A stretch of 39,237 nt of DNA, taken from the IMG/VR virus record IMGVR_UViG_3300045988_144194; one strand, given 5' to 3'. Shown here one piece after another: positions 1,340-39,237 of the stretch (its first letter is position 1; each line of letters opens with the position of its first letter). This stretch comes from a virus. The notes beneath the pieces are model-generated. The model ran no database searches, was not told the origin of the DNA, and saw only the letters and a program-made list of their open reading frames with translations. Made by a program: the position numbers and the translations under genes.

Positions 1340-1356
1340 AATCGGCTCCTTACTGT

Positions 1357-3137: not shown

Positions 3138-6042
3138 TGCGTATCACCCTTCCGAGTTCACGACCATCCACCTCGATGCCAAGCTTCTCCATAATCAGCG
3201 GCATATCCGCGTGCAGTGAGCGCAGCTCCGATAGGAGTTCGCCGAGTAGTTCGCCGGACTGGTTCTGGTATGTGCCGTTCGCGGTGCCTGTGCCGACGCC
3301 CGAGCGTGGCGTGTCCATGCCGTGCATGAGTTCCATGCTGGCCGGGCTGATCGCGGCGCGGGTGGCGTCCACGAGGCCGGCCCGGCGTTGGAGCATGCCC
3401 TCGGCCAGACCGTCGATGATGCTTTGGCCGGAGTAGAGGGTCCAGCCGTGGCCGCTGAACGGGCCTTCCTTCGCCGGGGAGTGCGGGAACAGTTTCGAGA
3501 TGGCCTCCATCGCGTTGGATGCGGCGTCAACGGCGGCGCTGATGCCGTTCCTGATGCCTTGGGCGAGACCGTCCATGATGCTGCGGCCGGATGAGAGGAG
3601 CCACGAGCCAGCGTTGGAGAACAGGCTTTGTATGCGTCCGGGCAGGCTCTGCAATGTGCCGGTGATGCCTTGCAGGAACTGGTTGCCGGCGTTGCGTGCG
3701 CCCGCCCCCATCTGTCCGCCCCATGCCTGTACGCTGCTTATCGCGCCGGTCAGCCATTGCCAGATTCGTCCGGGCAGCGACTGAAGCCATTGGCCAAGCC
3801 CGGTCAGGAACCGGCTTCCCGCGTCTCCGGCCTGCGCCATCATCTGTCTTCCCCATGCCTGCACGTTCTGGATGGTTTGAGTCAGCCATGTCCAGATTTG
3901 TGACGGCAGCTGCTGTATCCAGTTCGATAGGTTCGTCACGAAGTTCTGTCCGGCTTCCATCGCCTTGGAACCCAGTTGTTGGGCGAACGCGATGGGGAGC
4001 ATGATGGCGTAGCCGAGCCAGTAGCCGATGGTCTGCGGCAGCTGCTGGAACCATTGGCCGATGTTGGTCAGGAACTGGCTCCCCGCGTCCATGGCCTTCT
4101 GCGGCAATGATTGGAACCATTGTCCGATTTCGTCGAGCTTGGCCTTCACCGGTTCCACGAACGTGGAAAAGAAGCCGTTGACGGCGTTGGCCCCGGCGTC
4201 GCCGGAGAACAAGCCGAACAGGTTGCCGGCCATGTCGGCCAGCGAGCCCATCGGGTCGAGCAGGAATCCGATCACCTGGCCGAGGATGGGGAACTTCTCG
4301 TTGAGCCAGTCGATGCCGTCGGCGAGTTTGCCGACCGCCGACGCGATGCCGTCCAACACTCCGGCGACGGTCTCGACCACATTGGCGACCGCCCCGATGT
4401 ACGCGACGAATCCTTTCGCGGCGGCGGCGGCCGTGTCGAGCCCGTCACCCGCCCCTTCGGCGGACTTCTTGCCGCCGTCCAACGCCTTGCCGAGCCGTTT
4501 CAATGAGCCGAGGGCGTCGCCGAGCGCGGAGAATATGCGTTCGAGCGCGTCCATCCACGTGTCCAATGCGCCGCTGTCGGAGAGAGTGTCGGTGAATTTT
4601 TTCACCCATTCGGCCACGCGTTTGAGCTGGTCGGCCATCTTCTGCACGAGGTCGGCCGCGACCTTGATAACCGCACCCAGCAGTTCCGCGGAGCCCTTGG
4701 CCGAGTCGAAGCGGCCGGCCGCTGATTCGGCCATGTCGCCGGCACCACGGAAGGCGTCAGCGACGTCGCCGATAGCGTCGAACAGGCTGCCCAACGCGCC
4801 GGCAAGCTGCTGCACGGCCCCGGTGTCTTTCAGTGCGGCGATGAACTTGCTCCACCATTCGACGGTGTCGGCCACCCAGTCCGCGAAGTCGGAGAACACC
4901 GTGCCCACGTATTTGAGCACGTCCTCGATGGCGGAGACTATCGCGCCGTCCGGCACGAGGCCCTTGAACGACCCGGCGATGCGGTCTACCGCCTCGGTGA
5001 CGCGGCTGCGCGCGGATTCGAACGCCGTGGAGATGGTGTCCTTGAACCGGGTTATCGCGCCGGTCTTGTCGAGCTTGTCGTACAGGCCCTTGATCCACTT
5101 GCCCGCTTCGGAGAACTTCTTCTTCACGTCCGTGACCATGCTCGCGGCCGCGTCGCCCACCTTGCCGAACTGGGAGCTGAACCTGTTGATCGCGCCGGCG
5201 ATGTTCTCCACTCCGACGGCATCGATGACCTTCTGCACGGCCTTGGCGACGCGGTTCTTCACGTTCTCCATGGCCGTGCCGATGCCCTGCGTCGCGTCCT
5301 TGGCCTGCTGTGCGAACGAGGCGTATTTGCCGAAACCGTTCTGGTTGAGGTCCATGACGGCCTTGTTGAAGTCGTCGAAGCTGAACTTGCCGCTTTTCAT
5401 GGCCTCGTACAGGTCGTTCGCATTATGTCCCGCGCCCATCATGGCTTCGGCGACCTGATTGAGCTGGCCGGGCATGGCCGCCTGGATGCTGCGCCACGCC
5501 TGCATGTCCACCTTGCCGGCGGAGAGCATCTGCGTGTACTGGGTGAGCGCGTTCTCCTGCTCCATGGTCGAAGCGCCGCCGGCGAGCATGGCGTTATTGA
5601 ACGCCAAAGCGATGTCGGTGGCCTCGTCGAGGTTCGAGGTCAGTGGGGCGAGCTGCTGGACCATGCCGGTCATGGCCGAGCTGGTGGTGGGCAGACCGTC
5701 GAGCGCGTCACTGATCTTCTTGATGCTCGCGGCCGCATCGGTGGCCGAATATCCGAGGTTCTTCATGACCTTCGGGAAGTTGTTCATCTGGTCGGCGCGG
5801 TCAACTGCGGAACCAAGGCTGGACGTGACGACGGACGCGACCTTGCTGAACACGGTGGACGTGATGCCGGCCACGGCTCCGACCTTGGAGGCGAATCCGA
5901 CGGACAGTCCCTTGCCGATGCTCTGTCCGGTCTTACTGCCGGTGGTTTTGGATGCGTCGCCGAACGCTTTTTCAATGGCCTTGCCGACGCCATCCATGGA
6001 GGGCACGATGGGCACATATGCGGTGGCGAGATTATAGGCCAT
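3124..6042 (-). CDS. Tape measure protein
   Basis: 972 aa from the ATG at 6042. Ala/Gly-rich helical protein with internal roughly 40-aa repeats (QWFQ.LPQ.., AWG.QM.. motifs). Located after the chaperone pair. Confidence 0.9.
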   Translation of the reverse strand: MAYNLATAYVPIVPSMDGVGKAIEKAFGDASKTTGSKTGQSIGKGLSVGFASKVGAVAGITSTVFSKVASVVTSSLGSAVDRADQMNNFPKVMKNLGYSATDAAASIKKISDALDGLPTTSSAMTGMVQQLAPLTSNLDEATDIALAFNNAMLAGGASTMEQENALTQYTQMLSAGKVDMQAWRSIQAAMPGQLNQVAEAMMGAGHNANDLYEAMKSGKFSFDDFNKAVMDLNQNGFGKYASFAQQAKDATQGIGTAMENVKNRVAKAVQKVIDAVGVENIAGAINRFSSQFGKVGDAAASMVTDVKKKFSEAGKWIKGLYDKLDKTGAITRFKDTISTAFESARSRVTEAVDRIAGSFKGLVPDGAIVSAIEDVLKYVGTVFSDFADWVADTVEWWSKFIAALKDTGAVQQLAGALGSLFDAIGDVADAFRGAGDMAESAAGRFDSAKGSAELLGAVIKVAADLVQKMADQLKRVAEWVKKFTDTLSDSGALDTWMDALERIFSALGDALGSLKRLGKALDGGKKSAEGAGDGLDTAAAAAKGFVAYIGAVANVVETVAGVLDGIASAVGKLADGIDWLNEKFPILGQVIGFLLDPMGSLADMAGNLFGLFSGDAGANAVNGFFSTFVEPVKAKLDEIGQWFQSLPQKAMDAGSQFLTNIGQWFQQLPQTIGYWLGYAIMLPIAFAQQLGSKAMEAGQNFVTNLSNWIQQLPSQIWTWLTQTIQNVQAWGRQMMAQAGDAGSRFLTGLGQWLQSLPGRIWQWLTGAISSVQAWGGQMGAGARNAGNQFLQGITGTLQSLPGRIQSLFSNAGSWLLSSGRSIMDGLAQGIRNGISAAVDAASNAMEAISKLFPHSPAKEGPFSGHGWTLYSGQSIIDGLAEGMLQRRAGLVDATRAAISPASMELMHGMDTPRSGVGTGTANGTYQNQSGELLGELLSELRSLHADMPLIMEKLGIEVDGRELGRVIRNAIA

Positions 6043-6064
6043 TGTTTCGCCTTCCTCTGTTCGG

Positions 6065-6550
6065 TTATGGTTGTCCGGTCTGCGGCCGGTTCTCCACACG
6101 GTTCACGGTCGTGAACCGTTGGCTCATGAATCGGTCGAGCTGTTCGACGCTCATGCCAACGGCCTTGATGGTGCGCGTGCGACGGATGGTGTTGCCATCG
6201 GGTTCTGGGTTCTCTGATCCGGCTTCCATGGCCGGGCCGGTTGCTTCCGGCGTGGCGTGGTGTTGGCCGGGGCGTGGCAGCGGCCGGGGTTGCGGGCCGC
6301 GTTTCCTCGGGTCGCCGTTTGCCCAGATCCACTGGTTCATCTGTTCGATGCGCAGCACGGCCAGATACTGGTCGAACGTCCACGCGCGCGGCGTGTCCAA
6401 CGTCTGCCAGACGAGTGAGCCTGCGGGGAGGTTCGCGGCCAGTGCGGCCGTCTCCAACGGGTCCAGGTCGTGCATGCCGAGCCCGTACTCCCTTCTCATG
6501 TCCGCCGCCAACTGGTCAGGACAGCGGTCGAGCAGGAGCACGAGCGTCAT
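6065..6550 (-). CDS. Tail assembly chaperone T segment, probably made as a G-T fusion by -1 frameshift
   Basis: This ORF is in the -1 frame relative to 6547-6903. The slippery heptamer C CCA AAC sits 6 nt before the G stop. Confidence 0.75.
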   Translation of the reverse strand: MTLVLLLDRCPDQLAADMRREYGLGMHDLDPLETAALAANLPAGSLVWQTLDTPRAWTFDQYLAVLRIEQMNQWIWANGDPRKRGPQPRPLPRPGQHHATPEATGPAMEAGSENPEPDGNTIRRTRTIKAVGMSVEQLDRFMSQRFTTVNRVENRPQTGQP

Positions 6551-7343: not shown

Positions 7344-7886
7344 CTAGCTCATAGCCCCCCCCTTAAGGCTTGTGTTGTCGGGTTTCATCCAATCGTGCGC
7401 GGTAGTACCGGATTCCAACTGGATTCGGAGGTCGCCGTCCTTCGCGGTGGGCGTGGCCTCGGTGGAGATGACGTTGAGGAACAGGCTGACGGTGCCGGCA
7501 TGGATTGCCATGACACTGTTACCCAAGTTCATTTGGTCTCCCAGTTGCTGCCCCTTGGCGTCGAGGCACTTGATGTTGAAGCTCAAACCGTCGAGACTAG
7601 TGCCGCTGAGTTTCACGGTGCCCTGTACCGGGCATGGGAACGTCCACGACAGGCCACGCCATTGACCGGTGGCGGTGCCGGTGACATGCAATGACCCGTC
7701 ACTGTTAACGGTGGCGGTCAAACCGCTGCCCGACGCGGGGCCATAAGACAACAGGTTACGGGATTTGACCGTGACCGGCACCTTTTTGCTGATGTTCGGA
7801 TTGGTTGTCGACTTGATGGCGATTGTGGTGGTTCCGGGTTCCACACCGGTGACGCTTACCCCACCACTAAATACTTCATCAGCCAT
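7344..7886 (-). CDS. Tail/decoration protein that begins with the C-terminal half of a Big_2-type Ig-like domain
   Basis: The N-terminus ADEVFSGGVSVTGVEPGTTTIAIKSTTNPNISKKVPVTVKS resembles the second half of bacterial Ig-like group 2 domains. RBS AAAGGAG precedes the ATG at 7886. Confidence 0.7.
   Translation of the reverse strand: MADEVFSGGVSVTGVEPGTTTIAIKSTTNPNISKKVPVTVKSRNLLSYGPASGSGLTATVNSDGSLHVTGTATGQWRGLSWTFPCPVQGTVKLSGTSLDGLSFNIKCLDAKGQQLGDQMNLGNSVMAIHAGTVSLFLNVISTEATPTAKDGDLRIQLESGTTAHDWMKPDNTSLKGGAMS
7355..7362 (-). repeat. G8 homopolymer (C8 on the plus strand) at the junction of ORFs 7344-7886 and 7006-7314
   Basis: Counted directly from atagcccccc ccttaagg. The downstream ORF frame opens right after a TAA inside CTTAAGGGGGGGG and is -1 relative to the upstream ORF. 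Confidence 0.95.
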
Positions 7887-8322
7887 GGTTCACTCCTTTT
7901 CGAGAGATCGATGCGATGGACTTGTCAGCGACAGTCGCGGTCACCGTCTGGTCCGCGCCCTCCGGCAGGACCTTGACGTCGAGGCCCGCGGTCTCGCCGA
8001 CCCTGAGTGTCAACGACTCGGGCGTGACCTGGATGCCGGTGGGTTTGGACGGCAGCGGGGCCGGCAGCACGGCCTCGCCCTTCGCACGCGCATACGAGCC
8101 ATTGACCGTGCAATCCACAACAGTGACCACCTGACCGGTCTTGCCGTTTACCTGACCGTCCAAGGGGAACACGGTCCAACCGAACGCGAGGTCTACCACC
8201 GTGGCGCTTTCAACAACCGGTTTCGCGTCCGCGCTGGTTATCTTGTATCGACGCTGAAAGCCGGATGCTGGAGCCTCCGACACATTGACCTGCTGGCCCC
8301 CTTCACGGGCCGAGACAGTCAC
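7879..8322 (-). CDS. Extension ORF of the major tail protein (reached by -1 frameshift), ending with the N-terminal half of a Big_2-type Ig-like domain
   Basis: In the -1 frame relative to 8334-8909 and contiguous with it after a slip at CCCAAAA. The C-terminus IQVTPESLTLRVGETAGLDVKVLPEGADQTVTATVADKSIASI is Big_2-like. Confidence 0.65.
   Translation of the reverse strand: MTVSAREGGQQVNVSEAPASGFQRRYKITSADAKPVVESATVVDLAFGWTVFPLDGQVNGKTGQVVTVVDCTVNGSYARAKGEAVLPAPLPSKPTGIQVTPESLTLRVGETAGLDVKVLPEGADQTVTATVADKSIASISRKGVNHG
7913..7971. repeat. 59-bp perfect direct repeat (partner 10479-10537)
   Basis: gcgatggacttgtcagcgacagtcgcggtcaccgtctggtccgcgccctccggcaggac is present at both places. It encodes LPEGADQTVTATVADKSIA on the minus strand. 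Confidence 0.95.
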
Positions 8323-10332: not shown

Positions 10333-10464
10333 TCAGAATGCGATGATGCCGAAGCCGCGTGCTGCGGCCAGCAGCATGTCCGCCTGCGCCCGTTCCGCGT
10401 CGGTGAGAGGATGCCACCGGGCTTCCAGATCCTCGTGAGGGGCGAACACGGTATTGTCAGTCAT
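10333..10464 (-). CDS. Small 43-aa ORF (MTDNTVFAPHEDLEARWHPLTDAERAQADMLLAAARGFGIIAF)
   Basis: Below the ORF-track length cutoff. Its ATG overlaps the stop of the capsid extension ORF (GATGACTGA), and GC3 is high. Confidence 0.35.
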   Translation of the reverse strand: MTDNTVFAPHEDLEARWHPLTDAERAQADMLLAAARGFGIIAF

Positions 10465-10630
10465 CGGACACCACCGTGGCGATGGACTTGTCAGCGACAG
10501 TCGCGGTCACCGTCTGGTCCGCGCCCTCCGGCAGGACACGTACCGTCACATTGGTTGTCTCGCCGGCTCGGACGGTGACGGTTTCAGGACTGGTCTCGAT
10601 GGATTGGGGTGCCGGCGTCACACTTTTGGG
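10457..10630 (-). CDS. Capsid C-terminal extension ORF (reached by -1 frameshift) encoding the N-terminal half of a Big_2-type Ig-like domain
   Basis: The -1 frame after CCCAAAA reads PKSVTPAPQSIETSPETVTVRAGETTNVTVRVLPEGADQTVTATVADKSIATVVSDD*. It shares the 59-bp repeat with 7913-7971. Confidence 0.6.
   Translation of the reverse strand, partial: PKSVTPAPQSIETSPETVTVRAGETTNVTVRVLPEGADQTVTATVADKSIATVVSDD
10479..10537. repeat. 59-bp perfect direct repeat (partner 7913-7971)
   Basis: Identical 59-mer, see 7913-7971. Confidence 0.95.
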
Positions 10631-11565
10631 GCTGCGATCACGAAGGCGGGGAAGCGCTTCGTCTTGTCGGGCTGCACGTCGTTGATGGGGTTGGCGATTT
10701 GGAAGCCGACGCGGAACACGACGCGCATGGCGACGCAGTCCTGCTGGGCGAGGTTCAGAATCACCTTGCCGTTATCGTCCGAGATAACCGACTGGTCAAG
10801 CATCTTGTAGGTGATGTCCTGACGGATGCCGACCACGAAGTTCGACCAGTCTGCGCCGAGCAGCACGGCCTTGGTGGAATCCCACGCGCCGTTGTCGACC
10901 TCGTTGAGATCGAAGCCGTAGAGGGTGGACGGCGCGCCGGAGGCGAGCGAGGGCACGTAGATTGGGGTGCCGTTGGTGTTACGCAGGCCGATAAGCTCCC
11001 AGTTCAGGCCCGGCTTGCCGGCGAAGCCGTTCATGGCGAAGCCCTGTTCGGCGAGCTTCTGTCCCATGGAGGCCACGTCCTTGGCGAGGTCCTTGCCCTG
11101 GGTGAGCGTGTTGCCCGCCGTGATGGCCTGCGGGATGATGCCGTCCGGGAAGCTGGACGGCTTGTCCACGCCGAAAAGGGTCGCCTGGTCCAGCTTGTAG
11201 CCGAGCGCGGAAGCCAGACGCGGCATGACCTCCGGCCAGATTGGGATGCCGGAATCCGCGATAACGGCTTCGGGGATGGGCACGATGGCCGCAAGTTCCT
11301 CGGCCGTGATGCTCAGGCCCGACCACTTCATCTTCGTGGTCTGTTTCAGGCCGGTATCACCGCCCACCCAGTAGGCGATCGGCTTGGAGTCAAGCACCGG
11401 CTGCGTGCGCGTGCGGGTGCTCATGCGAATCTGACGCATACGGGTCAGGGACACACTCGACTTGGGAGCGTCCTGGATAATCTGGGTGGCGTATTCGGTG
11501 GGGATGAGTCCGCCGCCGAGGTCGCCGCTGGTGATGATGGAGTTCACGTTGGAAGTCATCGTCAT
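10618..11565 (-). CDS. Major capsid protein
   Basis: 315 aa lying downstream of the scaffold-like gene. Composition and size are typical of HK97-fold capsid proteins. Confidence 0.88.
   Translation of the reverse strand: MTMTSNVNSIITSGDLGGGLIPTEYATQIIQDAPKSSVSLTRMRQIRMSTRTRTQPVLDSKPIAYWVGGDTGLKQTTKMKWSGLSITAEELAAIVPIPEAVIADSGIPIWPEVMPRLASALGYKLDQATLFGVDKPSSFPDGIIPQAITAGNTLTQGKDLAKDVASMGQKLAEQGFAMNGFAGKPGLNWELIGLRNTNGTPIYVPSLASGAPSTLYGFDLNEVDNGAWDSTKAVLLGADWSNFVVGIRQDITYKMLDQSVISDDNGKVILNLAQQDCVAMRVVFRVGFQIANPINDVQPDKTKRFPAFVIAAPKV
10624..10630 (-). promoter_or_regulatory. -1 slippery heptamer C CCA AAA at the 3' end of the major capsid gene
   Basis: The zero frame reads gcC CCA AAA GTG TGA. 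The -1 frame continues open for 55 more codons. Confidence 0.6.
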
Positions 11566-12144: not shown

Positions 12145-12972
12145 TCAGTTCGAGTGCGACGGTCGTGGCACCCCGTAGCCGTCCTTGTAACGGTCGGGGT
12201 AGAGTCGGCGCATCACATAGGTGATCGTGTTCGGGTCGTTGGGATTGTCGGGATTGCCTTTTGTGGTGGCCTTTATCATCCGATAGGTGTCGTCGTCCAG
12301 GCCGCCGTTCTCGATGAGGCTGCGGGCGTGCATGTATTCCGAGTACATGCGGTCAGGGTCATAACCCTCGATGTGAGCTTGGTCCCTGTCCCATTCGGGC
12401 ACGATCTGGCAGTCGCAGTCGTCGTGGAACAGTCTGAACGAGCCTTTGACGTATTTCGCGGTCTTCTCGCTGCGGTACACCCAGCCGCGCGAGCAGAGCA
12501 TCGTGCAGAACGCGCACGTCTTCGCGCCTCTCGGCACGCGCGCGTACCGGGGTTCGGACGGGTCGTGCTCGCACAGGCGTGCGATGGTTTCACGCCCCGA
12601 ATACATGACCCAACGCATCATCGCGCCGACCAGAAACGCCTGCATGGTCTGCGGGTCCGTCCACAGGTGGCCGGCCTGCCAGCGTATGGTCTTGTCGATG
12701 CCGTCGCCGGGAAACGAGTCGGACAGGTCGTACTCCCACGGGTCGGGCACCGATTCGCCACGGACGCGCATATACCATTCATAGGCGGCCTGCGCCGCGA
12801 GGTCGCCGTATTTGACGACCAGTTGCGGCACGTAGTCGAGCAGCATGTCACGCTGCCATTCAGGGCTGAGCTGTTGCAGCGTCTCCCACAGTTTCGCCAG
12901 ATCGCGGCGTGCCAGTTCCACCGCCCGAGCTTGGCTGGCTTGCAGCTGTTCCAGTTGCCGGTTGTCCGTCAT
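12145..12972 (-). CDS. Minor head / head morphogenesis protein (MuF, SPP1 gp7-like)
   Basis: Lies after the portal gene. The Cys-rich motif CAFCTMLCSRGWVY..HDDCDCQIVP is typical of this family. Confidence 0.7.
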   Translation of the reverse strand: MTDNRQLEQLQASQARAVELARRDLAKLWETLQQLSPEWQRDMLLDYVPQLVVKYGDLAAQAAYEWYMRVRGESVPDPWEYDLSDSFPGDGIDKTIRWQAGHLWTDPQTMQAFLVGAMMRWVMYSGRETIARLCEHDPSEPRYARVPRGAKTCAFCTMLCSRGWVYRSEKTAKYVKGSFRLFHDDCDCQIVPEWDRDQAHIEGYDPDRMYSEYMHARSLIENGGLDDDTYRMIKATTKGNPDNPNDPNTITYVMRRLYPDRYKDGYGVPRPSHSN

Positions 12973-14395
12973 CCTTATTGCCTCCGTTCACGAGGGAGTC
13001 AAGCACGCTGCGGGTCTCGGCCTTGCGCTTGTCGACCAACAGGCGTGTGATATCGGAATCCGTGTAGCCGAGCTTCTCCAACACCACGTCGGAGTTGGCG
13101 AGCCATGGAATGGCCGTCACCTGCTTCACGATGGCATCGGAGAGCGCGGCCTGCGATGGGCGTTCGGGGTCACGCCAGTTGACCTGCAACCGATTGAGCT
13201 CGTCGCTGTCCTCGCTGGTGCCGTTGAGGATGGCGATGTCCCTCGCGGCCTTGCGTAGCTGCACGCCGATGGCGCGGCAGGCGTTCTTCGCCTCGATGAC
13301 AAGTTCGCTTTCCGCCGCCATGATCGCTTCCGAAGAAGAAGGGCCGGAATCCGTCATCACGCCGAACTGGCTGAGCGGCACGCCGGTCGCGCCGCTCATG
13401 CGTGCCGCGAGGGCGCGAAGCATGTCGGTGTGCGGCTGCATGGTCATCTGCGTGAACTGGCCGATGACGGGCGCTTGGCCGTCCTCGTTGAGGCTGATGT
13501 TGAGCATCTTCGAGATGGTGGCTTCCCAGCCGGTCAGCTTCCTGCCGTTCTTGTCCTCGGGCGGCTCGTCCGCGCCGATGAGGTAACGTTGCGGGCTCGA
13601 ATAGAATTCGGCGCTTACCTCCATGCGCAGCATGGTGCGCACCGCCGTGTCGGTGATGCTCATGACCTCACGGCTGATGCGCGAGCGGCCAAAGGGGCGG
13701 TTCAGGTCCTGATGGTAGGGGATCAGGTACACAGGCACATGATCCATGTACGTGTTACATGGAGCGTCCGCATGATAGCGGCCTGATTGCGTGCGGCGTA
13801 TACGAATCGTGTAGCCGGGCATGTAGAGCATGAGCTCGGAAGGCACGATGGTGTTCGCCTGCGCGTACTGTGAGCGGTCGATATCGGTTATCGACAACGC
13901 CGCCGACAGGCCGCGACGGGCGTAATCCCACAGGCCGGTCTCATAGAGCGCGCTACGGAACGACACGGACACCTTCGAGCGCAGACCATCCTCGGGTTCC
14001 GCGCTGCGCACGTTCAGGAACGAGCATGAGTGAATGAGCGCGCTGCGGATGGCCTGCGGCAATTCCACGTCGAAGTCGTTGTCTGAAAGAATCGAATCCA
14101 AACCCAACGGATCGCGGCTGTCGTCGCCGACTCCGACGAAACCATCGAACACGATGCGGTCGGCCAAAGCGTCCACCGATTTCTGCGGCCAGCCCACGAC
14201 CTCGCTTATCCCCGCCATGCTGTCCGGCACGGCGATGGACAGATTCTTAAGCTCGTTGCGCCCGTCGTAGTATTTGGTGCGCAAAAGGTTACGTTCGAGC
14301 TTCTGGGACCATTGACGTATCATCAAATCCCACGGTTCTCGGCACTCGTCGGGCAGATTATCGACCTGCACGTTTTCAAGACTGGGAATCTGCAT
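12860..14395 (-). CDS. Portal protein
   Basis: 511 aa from the ATG at 14395, immediately downstream of the large terminase. Its low-complexity C-terminal tail overlaps the next gene by 113 nt. Confidence 0.85.
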   Translation of the reverse strand: MQIPSLENVQVDNLPDECREPWDLMIRQWSQKLERNLLRTKYYDGRNELKNLSIAVPDSMAGISEVVGWPQKSVDALADRIVFDGFVGVGDDSRDPLGLDSILSDNDFDVELPQAIRSALIHSCSFLNVRSAEPEDGLRSKVSVSFRSALYETGLWDYARRGLSAALSITDIDRSQYAQANTIVPSELMLYMPGYTIRIRRTQSGRYHADAPCNTYMDHVPVYLIPYHQDLNRPFGRSRISREVMSITDTAVRTMLRMEVSAEFYSSPQRYLIGADEPPEDKNGRKLTGWEATISKMLNISLNEDGQAPVIGQFTQMTMQPHTDMLRALAARMSGATGVPLSQFGVMTDSGPSSSEAIMAAESELVIEAKNACRAIGVQLRKAARDIAILNGTSEDSDELNRLQVNWRDPERPSQAALSDAIVKQVTAIPWLANSDVVLEKLGYTDSDITRLLVDKRKAETRSVLDSLVNGGNKDDGQPATGTAASQPSSGGGTGTPRSGETVGDAATAQP

Positions 14396-15861
14396 CAGAA
14401 TGCCACCGCCTTCGCTCTTCTTCCCGGATGACGTTTGGAAGTCTTGACGTTCCAATACGCGAGAGCCACCGCTTCCACGGGACTCACGTCGATGTTCTCC
14501 ATGGACGGCTCGTAGCCGAACCCGTCGCCGATTTTCCTGTGCTTCGCATGACCCACCGCCTCGTCAAGCAGAGGTTGGCCGAAATGGGTAAGCCCATGGT
14601 CGTTCACGGCCTGTTCGAGCATCGAACAAGCGTCCGCCACGTCGGAAGGGCGCGGAACCACGATCACTCTTTTCGACACGCCCTTGTCGATGAGGCTGTT
14701 GACCAGGGTGGGGGCTCCCACGCGCCCGTCGATGATGATGCCGATGGCGTTGCGCCATCGTTCCGCACCGTTCTTCTCGGCGGTCAGCCAGTCGGCCAGC
14801 CAGCCGGTGCCGCCGCGCATGCTGCGCGAGGCGATGACCTCCACGTGCGGCAATTCACTCGACTTGCGGGGCGGGCGCACGCACGCCACGAGGGTGACGT
14901 TCGCGCCGTCCGCGCTGAACTTGACCGCATACGAGTTGTAGCCATCCATGCAGGGCTTGTCGGTCTTGCACTTGGCCCACTCGTCAACATCGATATCGGA
15001 CAGCGCGCCGGCCTGATCGTTCCACCAGCCGAGACGTTCGCGGGCGAAACCGTCAGGGGTCATCTTCTCCGACTCGGAAACGACCACGCTTTTCAACAGG
15101 CGGGTGCCGAGCGATGGATTGTATTGGTACCAGCGTTGCTGGTCGTGCACGTCGCCGATCTCGGTCGCCGCCCATTCGAACCAGCACAGGTTCTTCGGCG
15201 GCTTGTCGCGATGCGCGTTGCGGCGCATGCGCGCGAACACCGTGCCCGGCGAAGTCGGCGGGGTCGGCGTGCCCGTGTAGATGGTCAACGGATTGCCCGA
15301 GGGTGCCGACGAGATGGCGGGCTGTATGGCCTCCATCTGCTCGTCGGTCAGCTCCTGCGCCTCGTCGCACACCAGCACGTCCACCGTGAAGCCACGGCCC
15401 GAACTCTTCGAACGGGCGATGAACTCAATGCTGCCACCGTTCTTCAACACGATGGCCTCCTGACCGTTCGTGGCCCGGATATAGGTGACCAACTCCGCCA
15501 GTTCGGGGAACTTGCGCGCGTTCTCGAAGTAGTATTTCATACGCAGGAAATGCTTGCGGCAGGTCTTCACCTCATGCGCCGTATGCAGGATCTTCATGCC
15601 GAGGATCGCGGCAAGGTACAATTCCGTGAACTCGAGAATCGCGTTCTTGCCGTTCTGTCGCGGCACCGCGCACCCGCAATCCGACGCCGCCCATTGCAGC
15701 TTCGAATCCGTGGCGAGCCACCCCTCGAGCACGATGCGCTGCCACTTGTCCGGCTTCATGTCGTAGCCGGCAGCGAGCGCGCACGCCTCTCCTCCCTCGG
15801 ACTGCGCGTGCTTGGGAACCAGAGCGAAGCTAGGTTCCTGTACGCCTCTTCGTCTTGCCAC
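14395..15861 (-). CDS. terL: Terminase large subunit
   Basis: A Walker A-like region (AVPRQNGKN), VLVCDEAQEL (Walker B/DE), and a nuclease-like C-terminal half. The true start may be internal. Confidence 0.9.
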   Translation of the reverse strand: MARRRGVQEPSFALVPKHAQSEGGEACALAAGYDMKPDKWQRIVLEGWLATDSKLQWAASDCGCAVPRQNGKNAILEFTELYLAAILGMKILHTAHEVKTCRKHFLRMKYYFENARKFPELAELVTYIRATNGQEAIVLKNGGSIEFIARSKSSGRGFTVDVLVCDEAQELTDEQMEAIQPAISSAPSGNPLTIYTGTPTPPTSPGTVFARMRRNAHRDKPPKNLCWFEWAATEIGDVHDQQRWYQYNPSLGTRLLKSVVVSESEKMTPDGFARERLGWWNDQAGALSDIDVDEWAKCKTDKPCMDGYNSYAVKFSADGANVTLVACVRPPRKSSELPHVEVIASRSMRGGTGWLADWLTAEKNGAERWRNAIGIIIDGRVGAPTLVNSLIDKGVSKRVIVVPRPSDVADACSMLEQAVNDHGLTHFGQPLLDEAVGHAKHRKIGDGFGYEPSMENIDVSPVEAVALAYWNVKTSKRHPGRRAKAVAF

Positions 15862-19007: not shown

Positions 19008-19083
19008 TGGCATACGCGGTTGGCTTCGATCCAACGACCTGCGGTTTTGGAGACCGCCGCTCTACCTGCTGAGCTACGCGCAT
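19008..19083 (-). tRNA. tRNA-Trp (anticodon CCA)
   Basis: The minus strand folds by hand as ATGCGCG TA GCTC AGCAGGTA GAGC G GCGGT CTCCAAA ACCGC AGGTC GTTGG ATCGAAG CCAAC CGCGTAT G CCA. This gives a full cloverleaf with one G-U pair in the acceptor stem. Confidence 0.85.
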
Positions 19084-23441: not shown

Positions 23442-23920
23442 CACGCGCCCCTCAGAATCGAGCCGAGTGAGGCAGCACCCAGCTTCTGGGCACCTGCGAA
23501 CCGTCTGGCCGTGGAACGTGACTTCGGCTGCGCGGCGGGCAGTTCGAGTGGGTTGCGCATGGTCAACGCCTGCTGCTGCGCCTGCTCCGGGCCGTTGCCG
23601 AGCATCCGCTGGCGGCGGTACATCCACGCCTCGTCCGCGGATAGGCCCCGCGCCTCGCATTCGCGCGCTATCTGCGCCTCAGAGGGCTTCGACTCGTTGC
23701 GCATCCTGCGCACGATGGCGTTCACATCGCCGGAACCGCACCAGCAACCCGTGCTGTTGTCCGCGTAGAAGCGCTTCACCGCCTTCAACGCCTCTCCCAG
23801 CGTCATGTCCGCGCGAAGCTCCTCGTGGAACGTGCGAGCCTCCAAGTCGGTGATGGCCGCGTTGCCGTGGTGGACGCGAATCTTCGCCAGCACGAGCGTG
23901 CTTTCCTTGAGCGTCAGCAT
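23441..23920 (-). CDS. Hypothetical replication-module protein
   Basis: 159 aa from the ATG at 23920. Sits directly downstream of the initiator-like gene. Confidence 0.5.
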   Translation of the reverse strand: MLTLKESTLVLAKIRVHHGNAAITDLEARTFHEELRADMTLGEALKAVKRFYADNSTGCWCGSGDVNAIVRRMRNESKPSEAQIARECEARGLSADEAWMYRRQRMLGNGPEQAQQQALTMRNPLELPAAQPKSRSTARRFAGAQKLGAASLGSILRGA

Positions 23921-24849
23921 GTCAGTACTCCTTCCCGTGATTGGTTTTCGGCGGCTTCCTCGGCCGCGTAGTGGGCTATCAGTGCCGCGTTCGCATCCTG
24001 GTTGGCCTGCGAACGGTTCCACGCCGATGGCGAGGGGCGTGCGGTCGGCTCGGGTTTGGCCGGCAGCGGGTCGTCGTCCCAGTGTTCGCCGTCCAGCCAG
24101 TTCGCCGGGGTGAGCGTGTAGCCGGGCTCACGGTTCGGGTCGGCGGCGTACCTCGACGCCTTGGCGATCAGGAACGTGTTGTTGGTTTTCCTCCGCGCCT
24201 TCCGCCAAGCCTCGAAGGCCTTGCGTTTGCCGGTCTTGCGTGGATAGGTCTGCCAGAACTGCTCGAACTCGATGGGATAATCCTCGTCGGCGCTCTCTGC
24301 GGCCCCCTCGGCTTGCGAGGGGGTTTGTGGGAGAGAGAATTCTTCGTTAGAAGAATTCTTATCTGTATCTGTATCTGTATCTGTATCTGTATCTGGCTTC
24401 GTTTTGCTTGAGTCTTGCTTCACGTCTGCTTCGTTTGTGCTTCGCGTCTGCTTCGTTTTGCTTGAGTCTTGCTTCACGTTGCGTGACTTGCCGGACGCTG
24501 CGCCACCTTTTCGGCCGGCTTCGGCTTTCTTCGCTTTAGCCTCCTCCACGTCAGCACGAGAACGACCCTGAGCTGCGACGAAATCATGCAGCCACAAGGT
24601 GCCGTCCTCATGCTCGTCTAAAAGATGCGCGTCGATGAGTGCGTCTATATCTTCATCGGAAGCGCCGAGCAGACATTTCAAATGGAAGCGGGACAGTTCA
24701 CCGTCGTTTAATTCGCCAGCGCAGTACGAGATCGCGAACGTCCACACGGAGAACGCGGAAGGGTGCTCCATTGCAAACACGCGAACTTTCTCGTTCTGCC
24801 ATAGGCGTGTGCTGAGCTTCGCGAACTTTTCCATATCGTGCCCGGCCAT
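23914..24849 (-). CDS. Replication initiator / replisome organiser-like protein with a repetitive linker
   Basis: The N-terminal winged-helix-like region and conserved C-terminal region (FEQFWQTYPRKTGKRKAFEAWRKA) are of the DnaD/phage-initiator type. They are separated by a low-complexity linker carrying VKQDSSKTK x2 and (DT)5. Confidence 0.6.
   Translation of the reverse strand: MAGHDMEKFAKLSTRLWQNEKVRVFAMEHPSAFSVWTFAISYCAGELNDGELSRFHLKCLLGASDEDIDALIDAHLLDEHEDGTLWLHDFVAAQGRSRADVEEAKAKKAEAGRKGGAASGKSRNVKQDSSKTKQTRSTNEADVKQDSSKTKPDTDTDTDTDTDKNSSNEEFSLPQTPSQAEGAAESADEDYPIEFEQFWQTYPRKTGKRKAFEAWRKARRKTNNTFLIAKASRYAADPNREPGYTLTPANWLDGEHWDDDPLPAKPEPTARPSPSAWNRSQANQDANAALIAHYAAEEAAENQSREGVLTC
24336..24359. 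repeat. Perfect 10-bp inverted repeat AGAATTCTTC-gtta-GAAGAATTCT
   Basis: Read directly from the sequence. It abuts the hexanucleotide repeat. Confidence 0.9.
24361..24395. repeat. Hexanucleotide microsatellite (ATCTGT) x5 plus a partial copy
   Basis: atctgt repeated in tandem. It encodes PDTDTDTDTDTDK on the minus strand. Confidence 0.95.
24396..24425. repeat. 30-bp direct repeat, copy 1 (gcttcgttttgcttgagtcttgcttcacgt)
   Basis: An identical 30-mer recurs at 24450-24479. Confidence 0.9.
24450..24479. repeat. 30-bp direct repeat, copy 2
   Basis: Identical to 24396-24425. Confidence 0.9.
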
Positions 24850-33102: not shown

Positions 33103-34236
33103 ATGGCGAACGTCACCAGATACAAGACCAGCAGGGGTGAGACTCGGTATCGAGTACGATACCGCAAGCCGGACGGCACGCAGACCGACAAGAGGGGCTT
33201 CCGCCGCAAGATAGACGCGGAGAACTGGGCGGCGGAGCACGTCACCATCGCCAAGGCCACCAACAGTTATATAGATCCGCAAGCCGGGAAGGCGACGGTG
33301 GAAGCATTGTGGCCGTCATGGATAGCCGCGAAGAAAGTCAAGTGCAAGGTAAGCTACATCGACTCGCTCGAAAGGGAGTGGAATCATCGCGTGGAACCCA
33401 TGTGGGGGAGCCGCGAGCTCGTATCCGTCACACACTCCGAAGTGCAGGAATGGGTGGCCGCGTTGACGGCGGCCGGGTCAAGCGCCACCGTGGTATTGCG
33501 CGCCGAAGGCATCCTATCCGGCCTGTGCAAACAGGCAGTGCGTGACCGGCTCATAGGCTCCAACCCCTGCGACGAGTTGGAGCTGCCGAGGAAGCACCGG
33601 AAGGAGCACCGGTATCTGAGCATGGCCGAACTGCTATGCCTGGCGGAAGCGTCGGGCTGGCGCAAACTCATTGTGCTGGTCCTGGGCTTGACCGGCATAC
33701 GCTGGGGAGAGCTCGTGGGTTTGCAGGTCAGGGACGTTGATTTGCGACGCCGCCGGCTGTGGATACGCAGGAACGCCACCGAGGTGCAACGTGAGATAGT
33801 GGTCAACACTCCTAAGTCGGACAAGTGGCGTCAGGTCGTGTATCCGGCAATGCTGGACGATGACATGCGGGCGTTGTGCGAGGGCCGCAAGCCCGACGAT
33901 ATCCTCTTCGAGGCTCCGGGCGGCGGCTACCTGCGTCGCACGCATGGGCCCAACACGACAAGCTCGTGGTTTTACTGGTCTAAGCGGCGCGCGGGCATCG
34001 AGGGCCAGATGACCGTGCATGATCTGCGGCATACCGCCGCGAGTCTCATGGTCAAAGCCGGCGCGAACGTCAAGGCCGTGCAACGCCAGCTCGGCCACAC
34101 TTCCGCCGCGATGACATTGGACGTGTACGCCGACCTGTTCGACGATGATCTGGACGCGGTGGGCGAGGCCGTGAACGCGATGCTGCTGGAGAATGTGGGC
34201 AAAATGTGGGCAAGGGATGCCGGTGAGGCCGCGTAA
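33103..34236 (+). CDS. int: Tyrosine integrase
   Basis: N-terminal arm-binding/SAM-like region (YRVRYRKPDG..FRRKIDAENW). The catalytic motifs GIRWGEL (R), HDLRHTAAS (H-x-x-R) and LGHTSAAMTLDVY (H...Y) are present. Confidence 0.92.
   Translation: MANVTRYKTSRGETRYRVRYRKPDGTQTDKRGFRRKIDAENWAAEHVTIAKATNSYIDPQAGKATVEALWPSWIAAKKVKCKVSYIDSLEREWNHRVEPMWGSRELVSVTHSEVQEWVAALTAAGSSATVVLRAEGILSGLCKQAVRDRLIGSNPCDELELPRKHRKEHRYLSMAELLCLAEASGWRKLIVLVLGLTGIRWGELVGLQVRDVDLRRRRLWIRRNATEVQREIVVNTPKSDKWRQVVYPAMLDDDMRALCEGRKPDDILFEAPGGGYLRRTHGPNTTSSWFYWSKRRAGIEGQMTVHDLRHTAASLMVKAGANVKAVQRQLGHTSAAMTLDVYADLFDDDLDAVGEAVNAMLLENVGKMWARDAGEAA
34192..34213 (+). repeat. Arm-type site candidate P: 2 x AATGTGGGCAA
   Basis: A 22-bp tandem 11-mer inside the 3' end of int. 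An identical 22-mer recurs at 34402-34423. Confidence 0.6.
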
Positions 34237-34261: not shown

Positions 34262-34299
34262 TTTGGTTGGCCGGGGTTCAATTCCCCGCGCCTCCACCA
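34262..34299 (+). other. attP core candidate: 3' end of a tRNA/tmRNA-like gene (..CGGGGTTCAATTCCCCGCGCCTCCACCA)
   Basis: T-arm plus acceptor 3' strand plus CCA, with no 5' half upstream. Flanked by the 14-bp direct repeats GCGGGAGTAGGGCT at 34242-34255 and 34333-34346. Confidence 0.65.
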
Positions 34300-34401: not shown

Positions 34402-34423
34402 AATGTGGGCAAAATGTGGGCAA
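34402..34423 (+). repeat. Arm-type site candidate P': 2 x AATGTGGGCAA
   Basis: Identical to 34192-34213 and in the same orientation, on the other side of the core. Confidence 0.6.
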
Positions 34424-34429
34424 AAATTG

Positions 34430-34460
34430 AGCCCCGCACCGGATGGTTGCGGGGCTTTTG
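34430..34460 (+). terminator. Hairpin GCCCCGCA..TGCGGGGC plus TTTTG
   Basis: An 8-bp GC-rich stem and a short T run, downstream of int and the att core. Confidence 0.45.
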
Positions 34461-36198: not shown

Positions 36199-37347
36199 TT
36201 AGCGGCAGGTCACCACGTCGCCCGGGTAGTAGACGTTGATGTTGCCGGAGGGGACGGTGCATTGGCTGACGTTGTAGCCGTGGGATGTGGCGAACTCCCA
36301 TACCGTGTCACCGTACTGGATGGTCTTGGAGACCCCGTTGGACGGCGCGGTTGTGGTGCCGCCGTAGGTGACGACATCGCCCACGTAGTAGCGGTTGATG
36401 TCACCGGAGGGCGTGCGCCATGCGGACAGGGGCCACGCGTTGTAGTCGACCGCGAGTCCCCAGATGGTCTCGCCCCACCGCATGGTGTGGCTGATGCCTC
36501 CAGTGCTGGGAGTGGGCTGGGGAGTGTTCGGCTGCACGGGCGCGGCCGGTGTGGCCGGTGGCGTGGAGCCGCCGGTCGGGTTGGCGTACAGATCCCACTG
36601 CCATGCCTCGCCGCGGAACACGTTGAGGTCGATGGGACTCCACGTGTTGACGACACCGGTGCCGCTGTATTGGCGCATGGCCTCGCCGTACGCGCCTATC
36701 ATCCACGGGTTGGCCTGATAGCCGGTCGGGCTCATGTTGGCGTACTGGGCGATCCACAGGCCGTACCGGTCGCGGATGTCCTGCGGGATGGTGCCGGCGA
36801 CCGGGCCGGTGTACAGCAATGGGCGCACACCGCCGCTCAAGCGTTCGCACTCCGCCATGAATCGGCGTACCCAATCCCAGTTGCCCCATGCGGGGTTGTC
36901 GTCCATCTCCCAGTCGAGCGCCACGATGCCGTGACGCCAATAGTTCGACGTGTTGCGATAGAAGAATTGGGCTTCGGCCTCCGGGGTGCCTCCCATGGCG
37001 TAGTGATACAGGCCGAATTTTTTGCCGGATGCCTGCGCTTGGGCGATCATGCGGTTGGCGTCCGTGTTGACGCCGGACACGAGACAGTTGTTATACACCT
37101 GTCCCGTGCCCCATGTGGTGCCGACCACCACGAAGTCGGCCTGCGTGTTGGCGATGTCGATGCCGCACTGCCAGTTGGACACGTCGATGCCCTGCATGTC
37201 GGCGTGCGCGGTCGCCGGGAGCAGCATCATACAGACGGCGGCGACTAGGGCCGTGATCTTGGCGAGCAGACGCTTCCACCACGGCTTGTCCTTGTTTTTA
37301 ACCAATTTTTCCCCTTTCTCTGAGGTGAATATTGTTTTGTGGCCCAC
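36199..37347 (-). CDS. Endolysin: signal peptide, GH25 muramidase domain and two LysM-like repeats
   Basis: MQGIDVSNWQ..FGLYHY..DWE..DLNVF are GH25 hallmarks. The N-terminal KRLLAKITALVAAVCMMLLPATAHA looks like a Sec signal. Two C-terminal ~45-aa repeats (WGETIWGLA.., YGDTVWEFA..). The start may be the TTG at 37305. Confidence 0.88.
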   Translation of the reverse strand: MGHKTIFTSEKGEKLVKNKDKPWWKRLLAKITALVAAVCMMLLPATAHADMQGIDVSNWQCGIDIANTQADFVVVGTTWGTGQVYNNCLVSGVNTDANRMIAQAQASGKKFGLYHYAMGGTPEAEAQFFYRNTSNYWRHGIVALDWEMDDNPAWGNWDWVRRFMAECERLSGGVRPLLYTGPVAGTIPQDIRDRYGLWIAQYANMSPTGYQANPWMIGAYGEAMRQYSGTGVVNTWSPIDLNVFRGEAWQWDLYANPTGGSTPPATPAAPVQPNTPQPTPSTGGISHTMRWGETIWGLAVDYNAWPLSAWRTPSGDINRYYVGDVVTYGGTTTAPSNGVSKTIQYGDTVWEFATSHGYNVSQCTVPSGNINVYYPGDVVTCR

Positions 37348-37356
37348 GGTCGTGGG

Positions 37357-37662
37357 TCAGGACTGTCGTGGCGCTATCGGCGCGGATTGGATGTCATTGT
37401 TGAGCGATGTCCCGTGGCCGTTGCCGCCCAGGCTGTGATAGCTGTCGTAGAGGCGTTGGGAGCGTGATTTGAGGTCCTCGTCCGCCACTCCGTCGTGCTC
37501 GATGACCATTTCGCGGCGCAGGTCCTCCAACTGGCACAGCAGGAGCTCGCGCAGCCCGTTGACCATGGCTTTGCCCCATCGCCACATCAGGCCCAAAACC
37601 GTGGCCACGCCGCCACAGATAAAAGGCACGAGCCAATCGACGACGTGAGTGAGCAAAGACAT
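37357..37662 (-). CDS. Single-TM holin-like / lysis-associated membrane protein
   Basis: N-terminal TM segment (VVDWLVPFICGGVATVLGLMW). RBS AAAGGAG. First gene of the lysis cassette. Confidence 0.5.
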   Translation of the reverse strand: MSLLTHVVDWLVPFICGGVATVLGLMWRWGKAMVNGLRELLLCQLEDLRREMVIEHDGVADEDLKSRSQRLYDSYHSLGGNGHGTSLNNDIQSAPIAPRQS

Positions 37663-37684
37663 TGGAAAGCTCCTTTACGGTGGG

Positions 37685-37737
37685 GAAAACCCACACGTTC
37701 GTCCCCGTTGGATAGGCCAACGGGCGTGTGGGTTTTC
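37685..37737. promoter_or_regulatory. Nested perfect palindrome (13-bp outer arms, 8-bp inner arms) between the divergent holin-like and recombinase genes
   Basis: GAAAACCCACACG ttcgtc CCCGTTGG atagg CCAACGGG CGTGTGGGTTTTC. It ends at position 37737, which is the c of cGGAGG, so the GGAGG RBS of the recombinase gene (37738-37742) follows immediately. Confidence 0.9.
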
Positions 37738-37748
37738 GGAGGTTGAAA

Positions 37749-38618
37749 ATGCTGTTACGAGAGTTTTGGAACGGCCGGTTTTGGCCGTATTGCACGGCGA
37801 ATCTGCGTGAGTCCACGTGTGTCGGCTATGAGTCGGCGTGGCGGTTGCACGTGGCCCCGAGGTTCGGCGCAATGCAGATGGAATCGATAAGCGTTGAATT
37901 GGTGGACAAGTGGCTCGCCGGTTTCGCCAGTTCGGGCGCGGCGCGCAAGGCGTGGGCCGTGCTCAGGGCCATATTGAGGCGGGCGATCCGCTGGAATCTG
38001 CTGGACGTGGATATCACGAGGCGTGATATCCGACTGCCGGCCAAGCCGCATTACGAGCCGGTGATATTGGGCATCCGTCAGCAGCGATCGCTGTTGCAGG
38101 GCTTTTACGACCATCCGCTTGAGGCGTGGCTTATCTGCGCCGTCTCATGCGGCCTGCGCACCGAAGAGGGGTACGGTTTGGAGTGGAGTGACATTGATCT
38201 GCGCGCAGGCGTCCTGCATATCGAGCGCGGTTTGCAATGGGTGAGCGGCCATGAGGTCGTCGTGCCGCCGAAGACCGAATTGAGCCGTCGCACGCTCCCG
38301 TTGCCGCGCTTCGCGGTCAAACGGTTGCGCGAGCTCAAGCCGCGCGAGGGAGGGCGACTCATCGGTGCGCTCACCCCGCCACAGGTGGCACGCCAGTACA
38401 AGGGCTGGTGCAAGCGGTATAGCCTGCCGCATGTGCCCGCACGCAACCTGCGCCACTCGTGGGCGACGAACACGTTGGCGGCGGGAGCGGATATCGCCAT
38501 CGTGTCGAAAATGCTCGGCCACAGCGATATCAAAACCACCGCGAAGTACTACCTCAAACCGGATATCACGGCTTTGCGAGACGCGCAACGCCTCTGGGAA
38601 CGAGCCCTAATAGCCTGA
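37749..38618 (+). CDS. Tyrosine site-specific recombinase (shufflon/Rin-type invertase candidate)
   Basis: GLRTEE (Arg), NLRHSWAT (H-x-x-R) and LGHSDIKTTAKYY (His...Tyr nucleophile). Smaller than int and lacks the arm-binding N-terminal domain. Its stop lies 2 nt from the 15-bp site at 38621. Confidence 0.9.
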   Translation: MLLREFWNGRFWPYCTANLRESTCVGYESAWRLHVAPRFGAMQMESISVELVDKWLAGFASSGAARKAWAVLRAILRRAIRWNLLDVDITRRDIRLPAKPHYEPVILGIRQQRSLLQGFYDHPLEAWLICAVSCGLRTEEGYGLEWSDIDLRAGVLHIERGLQWVSGHEVVVPPKTELSRRTLPLPRFAVKRLRELKPREGGRLIGALTPPQVARQYKGWCKRYSLPHVPARNLRHSWATNTLAAGADIAIVSKMLGHSDIKTTAKYYLKPDITALRDAQRLWERALIA

Positions 38619-38620
38619 AC

Positions 38621-38635
38621 GGGATTCCCTAACCC
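38621..38635. repeat. Recombination-site candidate R1, GGGATTCCCTAACCC
   Basis: Inverted copy of the 15-mer at 603-617. Confidence 0.75.
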
Positions 38636-38907
38636 CGTTGCATCTCTACACGGGTAGCAGCGTGCTCTATGATGCTGGCTCAGGCGGTTATGCGACCCTA
38701 TGGACGTTCAGCCAGTTCCGGCAACAGTTCGGCCGTAATTGGGGCGATGACGTTTGCATTTCCGCCATGAACGGGGACTGGGACGCGAACGGCCGTCAAG
38801 TCACCTCGGTGCGTGTCACGAGAAGCGGAAACCGTATCGATGTCATGTTCGACGGTAAAAACACGGCACCTATCCGCGTCAACTGGGCCGTCATGTGGCG
38901 CGGATAG
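38623..38907 (+). other. Promoterless copy of tail-fibre cassette A (DSLTPLHLYTG...AVMWRG*)
   Basis: Identical to the last 94 codons of 331-1104. No constant N-terminal part and no RBS. It starts at the site. Confidence 0.75.
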
Positions 38908-38921
38908 GGATTCCCTAACCC
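38907..38921. repeat. Recombination-site candidate R2, GGGATTCCCTAACCC
   Basis: Inverted copy of 317-331. It overlaps the cassette A stop codon. Confidence 0.7.
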
Positions 38922-39237
38922 AGCGTTCCACGACATGGAGGGTCCCCTACAGCAACAACAGTATTTCGCTGACGCGCGTGGGTGATATCTGCTTCGCGGG
39001 CGGCAACGTGAAATTCAACCAGAGCGGCGAGAACAACTACACACAGGCGCGGGAGACCATACCCGTGGGGTATCGTCCAGCGGAAACGTCGAACGTTCCC
39101 ATCGCCGTGTTCGGCGGCAACACCACGTTCATCCTCTACGGCGAGCATACGGGCCGTGTGGTCATGCTCGGCAACCCGAACAACGCGTATGCGGGATGCA
39201 CCGGCGTATGGCGCACCACCGACCCCATGCCCGCGTA
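38909..39237 (+). other. Promoterless tail-fibre cassette B (right copy), open to the window edge
   Basis: Same as 1-316 on the opposite strand. 109 sense codons with no stop, in the DSLT register. Confidence 0.6.

Follow-up and report, generated by a model that had tools for sequence, protein, structure and literature searches.

The 39,237-nt virus contig IMGVR_UViG_3300045988_144194 from IMG/VR, referred to here over its whole length as the window, carries at its two ends the parts of a Rin shufflon, an array in which promoterless variable cassettes (Rv) for the C-terminal part of a phage receptor-binding protein (RBP) are joined at a short site, rix, to a constant RBP N-terminus (Rc), next to the gene of a tyrosine recombinase, rin. 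The window is very probably a complete contig of a temperate siphophage with circular or concatemeric DNA that was opened inside this shufflon, its mirrored ends stemming from co-existing isomers of the array. The system itself is already known. It was described for the dnaJ2-integrated prophages Bb423phi1, Bl157phi1, and Bl30698phi1 of Bifidobacterium breve and Bifidobacterium longum (Mavrich et al. 2018, Sci Rep 8:12772, PMC6109161), and because the published shufflon carries the identical site, the one in the window is not novel. A sequence-only reading of the window had proposed a recombinase abutting promoterless RBP cassettes that are joined to a constant N-terminus at a short site, an arrangement that the published system matches.

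The rix Site and Its Cassettes

A motif search for the 15-mer GGGATTCCCTAACCC revealed four copies in the window, two on the minus strand (317-331, 603-617) and two on the plus strand (38621-38635, 38907-38921), exactly where the sequence-only reading had placed them, and none more at up to two mismatches. Dinucleotide-preserving shuffles gave an expected value of 0.03 matches, and none of 100 shuffles reached four. The 11-nt core of the 15-mer, TTCCCTAACCC, for which no further copy was found in the window at up to one mismatch, is identical to the published rix, an 11-bp asymmetric repeat located upstream of each Rv (PMC6109161); the earlier suggestion that the site might differ from that of the Bifidobacterium case was therefore not borne out. 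The 15-mer is longer than the core because the end of rin, the end of Rc, and the end of one cassette, E, all finish in GGGA, and other cassette ends in relatives read TAGTT, TAGCT, or TAGCA. All copies, two of them unique, are read as G GAT TCC CTA ACC C and encode D-S-L-T leading into an open cassette, in agreement with the junction described earlier.

Inspection of the contig ends showed that the arms at 1-617 and 38621-39237 form a perfect inverted repeat of 617 nt (100% complementary), which ends precisely at the outer edge of the 15-mer. Because the first arm mirrors the second at 100%, the four sites and four cassettes of the contig amount to two distinct sites and two distinct cassettes. 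The rix next to rin (38621-38635, plus strand; core at 38625-38635) lies 2 nt after that gene and marks the point at which the homology of relatives breaks, and the second rix (38907-38921, plus strand; core at 38911-38921) is in direct orientation relative to the first. The mirror copy of the second site (317-331, minus strand) was located both by the motif search and by the inverted repeat. The remaining copy (603-617, minus strand) lies inside the RBP gene, where it encodes W-D-S-L-T, and the homology of relatives resumes here, at window 597-603. The opposed rix copies in the window are thus the mirror ends of one segment; relatives have 2-5 sites, in patterns that include ++--, +---, and +++-.

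The constant part, Rc (616-1104, minus strand), has its ATG at 1104-1102 with a GGAGG ribosome-binding site (RBS) upstream, comprises residues M1-W163 followed by DSLT, and matches PHROG 13141 (2.3e-69), PHROG 9994 and, weakly, the “tail protein” profile PHROG 6779. Cassette E in the expressed position (331-602, minus strand; stop at 333-331) is fused to Rc in frame, and the resulting Rc-E product (1104-334, minus strand) is 257 aa long and 100% identical to the database protein P0121. Fusion of E to Rc was found in at least 120 public protein clusters, one of which is from B. longum. The other copy of E, at the rin end (38636-38907, plus strand), encodes 93 aa from SLT onward and terminates with a TAG at 38905-38907 that overlaps the second rix by 1 nt. 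It is followed by cassette A (38922-39237, plus strand), a frame of 107 aa that is open to the contig end and that has a mirror copy at 1-316 (minus strand; 100% complementary to 38922-39237). Both cassettes on the rin side are open from the site and have neither a start codon nor an RBS, as had been noted from the sequence. Since the contig breaks off within the array, no more than these two cassettes can be seen.

Whichever promoterless Rv stands behind the rix of Rc would supply the last ~90-107 residues of the RBP, in this case E, and cassette switching would be expected to change host range. The named homologues of Rc-E are all from Bifidobacterium, the closest being a B. longum protein with 95% identity, and all named Rin homologues are likewise from Bifidobacterium. 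Contigs with the window's cassette A originate from human-gut metagenomes. Judged from these sequence relationships, the host of the window phage is most likely a Bifidobacterium of the B. longum group.

Continuity of the Contig Ends in Relatives

Ten IMG/VR relatives were found to span the locus. In these, the segment corresponding to the window from ~36 kb to 38635 is followed by 0.7-2 kb of cassettes and then by the window from 597/603 onward on the same strand, with rix as the exact point at which homology breaks and resumes. In relatives that possess cassette A or E, one copy matches both window ends. A prophage integrated in an NCBI assembly (L103) has the order TMP-Dit-Tal-80aa-Rc[E><I]<A]..<D]<B]rin-101aa-GH25 lysin-holin-host genes (TMP, tape measure protein) and so shares with the window the succession Rc-array-rin-101aa-GH25 lysin-holin. 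Given that the window ends adjoin in the relatives and in L103, the window is a circularly permuted genome with its opening within the array of cassettes.

The right end of the window can be followed further in contig L027, in which the order rin[E>[A>[H>[G><D]Rc carries it on to Rc within one contig. The junction between the end of E and rix is the same in the window, in L027, and in L088. Inversion of an entire L027-like array gives Rc[E>[A>..., which corresponds to the left end of the window.

Both the integrase gene and the attP are internal to the contig, and the DNA that was assembled is therefore excised circular or concatemeric phage DNA. The attP-like segment, CCGGGGTTCAATTCCCCGCGCCTCCACCA, lies directly after the integrase gene at 34262-34299 and was aligned by the Rfam tmRNA model as the 3′ end of a tmRNA at 27 bits, a score that stays below gathering since no other part of the tmRNA is there. 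Compared with the tmRNA att core reported in Bb447phi1 and Bb1192phi1, the segment differs at 2 positions; the dnaJ2 att core had no match in the window at up to 3 mismatches.

The inverted-repeat geometry of the contig ends is the only point that speaks for the 617-nt repeat being a genuine terminal inverted repeat (ITR) of a linear phage genome. Such an ITR is effectively ruled out by the continuity of the 10 relatives and of the integrated prophage L103 across the junction. In addition, an integrase with an attP-like tmRNA 3′ end is typical of a circularising temperate phage, and what is repeated is a set of coding cassettes with recombination sites at their borders. We give a linear genome almost no credence.

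Recombination at rix in Public Arrays

To place the window among related loci, 80 of the 123 IMG/VR stretches that encode a Rin relative were compared. The exact core TTCCCTAACCC was present in 75 of 82 loci, in 1-5 copies and with many orientation patterns, and clustering of the cassettes yielded at least 18 Rv families. Across ~100 public loci with 296 rix sites in total, 55 distinct upstream contexts (the rin end, the Rc end, and cassette ends) are freely combined with 47 distinct downstream contexts (cassette starts). All 55 left contexts have G at position -3 and either A or T at position -1, whereas no conservation is seen in the downstream flank. The same cassettes recur in over 100 public contigs, where their signed order takes many forms and the breakpoints fall precisely on rix. 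The window's own cassette A is a case in point: its last 32 nt are identical in 18 IMG/VR loci, where they are followed by G-TT-TTCCCTAACCC and then by at least six different cassettes.

The layout of the arrays was always the same, with forward cassettes, one tail-to-tail pair, and reverse cassettes. This can be compared with a minimal model in which inversion occurs only between oppositely oriented rix sites, under which the tail-to-tail pair should always stay together and each four-cassette array should have 12 isomers. For arrays composed of {A,B,C,D}, seven orders were observed, all seven of which fall within the 12 predicted and none outside, and the A/C pair was never split. The orders seen in these sequences support a mode of recombination that would be inversion-only. 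For Bb423phi1, isomers were recorded at the read level in both virion and lysogen DNA (PMC6109161).

Under this scheme, Rin would pair either the rix next to Rc or one within the array with any opposed rix and recombine the two, thereby inverting the DNA between them and bringing a new cassette behind Rc. Cassettes in the same orientation would become reachable after an intervening inversion.

A separate observation concerns contig L091, at the start of which (1-660) two identical A cassettes stand in tandem ([A>[A>). This arrangement could represent a true duplication or unequal exchange involving directly oriented rix sites, a circle of A that was excised, or a loop in the assembly.

Origin of the Mirrored Ends

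The terminal inverted repeat of the window most likely reflects isomers, related by whole-array inversion, that co-exist in the sample. The segment rix-E-rix-A, if linked in reads to both Rc and rin, would be one node of the assembly graph with two predecessors, namely the two ends of the backbone. An assembler that extended the 38-kb unique backbone into this shared node at both ends would produce inverted terminal repeats. The remaining array, missing from the contig, would sit beyond a third rix, expected to begin 3 nt outside the contig at either end. The contig breaks off 1 nt short of the TAG of cassette A and 3 nt ahead of where the core of this third rix is expected (window 39237 / 1). 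The tail-to-tail pair of the window array is probably G/B2.

Contigs that break in this region were examined among the 80 from IMG/VR: 14 terminate no more than 100 nt beyond rin, and a further 15 terminate within the array. Two contigs begin at rin, cross the array, and close with a perfect mirror of the rin end, 98 nt long in L043 (3281-3378 / 4676-4773) and 78 nt long in L078 (5639-5716 / 6388-6465). L026 contains two rin copies that are 83% identical and in inverted orientation, and L095 was tagged in the junction classification as having an Rc-type junction at both ends, with no long inverted repeat being found in it. From L043, L078, L026, and L095 it follows that mirror contigs induced by a shufflon are a recurrent outcome of assembly. 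The mirrored layout named in the sequence-only reading is probably not a biological feature; it is better explained as a 100% terminal inverted repeat that results from assembly through an invertible array.

The layout of the contig as given is exactly that of a true mirrored duplication, in which E and A would each be present twice, behind Rc and inverted behind rin, flanking the central segment. Paralogous cassettes do co-occur, as in L011 with its two “B” cassettes, although these share just 64% nucleotide identity. By contrast, none of more than 60 public rin-to-Rc arrays holds an identical cassette in both orientations. Inversion of such a duplication would yield the same RBP, so that it would serve no purpose, and a single segment with two neighbours would be expected to show just this, perfect identity up to the very edge of rix. 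A true duplication is considered very unlikely.

A further explanation dispenses with switching in the sample and assumes two related phages or prophages, each fixed in a different isomer, that were co-assembled. Metagenomes often hold several strains, and the two mirror-oriented rin copies of L026, 83% alike, suggest that strain chimeras occur; many public rin genes also appear truncated (~70% coverage), so that some arrays may be frozen. However, the arms of the window are 100% identical over 617 nt, compared with differences of 1-19% for the same cassettes between public contigs, and the window's rin gene is of full length and retains every conserved residue. Co-assembly of two frozen strains is thus regarded as unlikely.

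The reading of the window as a circular or concatemeric genome with co-existing isomers has several points against it. The co-existence of isomers in this sample is deduced from the structure of the contig. The end of the contig falls 14 nt short of the end of the third rix core, whereas a simple de Bruijn graph would be expected to run through the core. The histidine of the H-x-x-R motif of Rin, the catalysis of which is presumed, is replaced by Arg232. Finally, the structural check of RBP identity gave no significant match in the PDB, the AlphaFold 2 (AF2) model of Rc-E having a mean pLDDT of 45.

This structural check comprised three parts. A phmmer search with Rc-E against the PDB gave no match at E ≤ 10. 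In the AF2 model, which was poor for Rc, the E domain reached a moderate pLDDT of 62-82; the overall quality is low because the underlying alignment consisted of 21 sequences that are 90-98% identical. A Foldseek search of the PDB with the model gave nothing at E ≤ 0.001, with weak matches to the C-terminal domains of tailspikes and pyocin fibres only. By HHpred, Rc had been likened to the N-terminus of the RBP of lactococcal phage 1358 and Rv to the RBP head of TP901-1 (PMC6109161), a link to lactococcal RBPs that was not reproduced by phmmer, AF2, or Foldseek.

Beyond the form of the genome, the repeat may be the footprint of both isomers, that is, of natural ongoing Rin switching in one human-gut sample, and this in a lineage with a tmRNA-type attP where Rin is undescribed. 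To this joint reading we assign an even chance. The array of this lineage would also be unlike the common A/C-paired arrays, with E and A as single cassettes, each with its own rix behind it.

The Recombinase Rin

The rin gene (37749-38618, plus strand), which is convergent with the RBP gene, encodes a tyrosine recombinase (invertase) of 289 aa. A GGAGG sequence lies 6 nt before its ATG, and its TGA stop is followed by “AC” and then by the site at 38621, so that the spacing of 2 nt reported earlier is correct. Profile searches of 37749-38618 gave PF00589 (1.1e-17) and PF14659 (7.9e-07), consistent with a SAM-like core-binding domain and a catalytic domain. The protein can be aligned end to end with the 290-aa XerD (1a0p) and with the XerC-like 4a8e, with R137, R235, H258, and Y267 in register, which agrees with the earlier view that an arm-binding domain is lacking. 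The recombinase domains found in the window are of the tyrosine family only, and the phage integrase is a separate, canonical protein of 377 aa (33103-34236, plus strand).

The sequence-only reading had also claimed a complete catalytic set, which is nearly right. In an alignment of 14 members of the Rin family, extending down to 53% identity, R137, K175, R235, H258, and Y268 are invariant. Y267, which is aligned to XerD Y279, is Y or F across the family. The position of the H-x-x-R histidine, by contrast, is occupied by Arg232 in the window and by R, Q, or E in relatives, and the claim fails for this residue. Rin presumably catalyses the inversion at rix.

Several observations concern the integrity of rin elsewhere. 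Dozens of Rin clusters (P0050-P0101) cover ~65-75% of Rin at 86-99% identity and have no match to the catalytic-domain Pfam model, which suggests that rin may often be truncated and the corresponding arrays frozen. In P0060 (389 aa, from a B. adolescentis metagenome-assembled genome), Rin reads through rix into an Rv cassette (…ALIGQWDSLTPAEY…). The rin frame of L001 holds a stop codon, and a stop codon has likewise been reported in rin of Bl30698phi1 (PMC6109161).

Between the divergent starts of rin and the gene for the 101-aa protein, a strong hairpin is predicted at 37663-37748 (minus-strand RNA fold of -36.3 kcal/mol, z = -4.5). Read along the structural-gene strand, the hairpin precedes UUUUCCCC and lies just upstream of the RBS of the 101-aa and lysin genes. 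This hairpin could be a terminator or attenuator that separates the RBP array from the lysis genes, or it could be an operator. In a scan of 37300-39237 for promoters and terminators, no signal exceeded what shuffled sequence would give.

rix Variants in Other Species

Orthologues of Rin are associated with variants of the site, among them TTCCCTATCCC and TTCCGTAACCC. In B. pluvialisilvae (L001, 3078-4723), the Rin of which is 73% identical to that of the window, the site is TTCCCTATCC, present in five copies (three plus, two minus) and encoding D-S-L-S. In B. pongonis (L002, 5655-6284; Rin 63% identical), TTCCGTAACC is present in one plus and one minus copy and encodes D-S-V-T. The same variant and the same peptide are found in the B. 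thermophilum phage PMBT6 (L102, 5341-6358; Rin 52% identical), with three copies and a degenerate rin-proximal copy; the rin homologue of this phage is annotated merely as “integrase.” No description of rix variation across Bifidobacterium species was found in the open-access text of the literature searched.

At 3063-3080 of L027, the rin-proximal site is TTCCCTATCCC within an array that is otherwise of the TTCCCTAACCC type, and this variant is the one that characterises the whole B. pluvialisilvae array (L001). The site may be locked or of altered specificity.

Genome Context

The remaining gene content of the window is that of a temperate siphophage genome. PHROG and Pfam scans identified, on the minus strand, a Tal-like minor tail protein (1357-2373), a 276-aa protein in the Dit position (2307-3137), the tape measure protein (3124-6099), the major head protein (10618-11565), the portal (12860-14455), and the large terminase (14395-15861). 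Together with the gene for an 80-aa protein (1097-1339, minus strand), the first three form the tail module upstream of Rc (1097-6099). On the other side of the array, the lysis module (36199-37662) lies on the structural-gene strand and comprises the endolysin (36199-37347, minus strand) and the 101-aa protein (37357-37662, minus strand). RecT- and RecE-like genes and a replication initiator are also present. A megablast search with the rin/cassette end and 24 kb of backbone against INPHARED, which does not contain the published Rin prophages, gave no relevant match.

Several side features were recorded. On either side of the attP core, at 34192-34213 and 34402-34434, lie copies of AATGTGGGCAA that may serve the integrase as arm-type binding sites. 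A perfect direct repeat of 59 nt (7913-7971 and 10479-10537) encodes VLPEGADQTVTATVADKSIA, apparently part of an Ig-like segment. One copy lies at the C-terminus of a tail open reading frame (ORF; 7879-8322) and the other in a 54-aa ORF (10457-10621) that overlaps the stop of the major head gene, which suggests that the same decoration domain may be appended to head and tail proteins. A tRNA-Trp (CCA) gene is located at 19008-19083 (minus strand). Within the replication-initiator gene (23914-24849), a run of TATCTG hexamers (24360-24401) and two perfect 30-nt repeats (24396-24425 and 24450-24479) look like iterons or an origin.

Significance and Comparison with Known Systems

The biology added here is small, in that the contig is one more carrier of the Rin shufflon published in 2018. 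Minor additions are the tmRNA-type integration module in a Rin-bearing phage, the R-x-x-R box, the architecture with E and A as single cassettes, the support for inversion-only recombination, and the rix variants in other species. Of more general concern for virome analysis, invertible arrays yield contigs with perfect inverted terminal repeats, which pipelines may score as complete linear genomes with ITRs; here, the repeat marks a circular genome from which a stretch of the shufflon is missing. Public metagenomes hold hundreds of Rin arrays, and array orders that obey the inversion-only rule support a directionality that the original authors left unexplained (PMC6109161). The rix variants across the genus could reveal the site-specificity code of the Rin recombinase family.

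In the published system, tandem Rv segments of 95-100 residues accompany a constant Rc of 168 residues, a XerD-like tyrosine recombinase without an arm-binding domain flanks the array and is separate from the phage integrase, and the RBP gene in its full length holds one rix and is followed by a second, directly oriented rix (PMC6109161). The window shares with it the rix core, the armless flanking recombinase, the in-frame rix of the RBP gene with a second, directly oriented rix behind that gene, the Rc-Rv fusion, and the place between tail and lysis genes; in the window, Rc has 163 aa plus DSLT and the cassettes have 93 and 107 aa. A difference is found in attachment, the published Rin prophages using dnaJ2 and the window phage an attP resembling a tmRNA 3′ end (34262-34299).

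A rin-type invertase with repeat-bounded RBP cassettes has also been described in clade 1 prophages of Eggerthella lenta (PMC8778435, 2022). That shufflon belongs to another actinobacterial gut genus, with a host of a different class (Coriobacteriia). Inversion of the C-terminus of a tail fibre by a phage-encoded enzyme is known from Min (p15B), Gin (Mu), and Cin (P1), as it is from Rin, and Min resembles Rin in acting on multiple segments. Gin, Cin, and Min are serine invertases, however, whereas Rin is a tyrosine recombinase (PF00589). In the R64/IncI1 shufflon, the tyrosine recombinase Rci acts at sfx sites to exchange the adhesin tips encoded by pilV and carries out inversions only. This system and Rin have in common multiple short asymmetric sites and one constant N-terminal part that is joined to alternative C-terminal cassettes. 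The target of the R64 shufflon is an adhesin of the conjugative pilus and not a phage RBP, and its site sequence is unrelated to rix; the likeness between the two is a functional one only.

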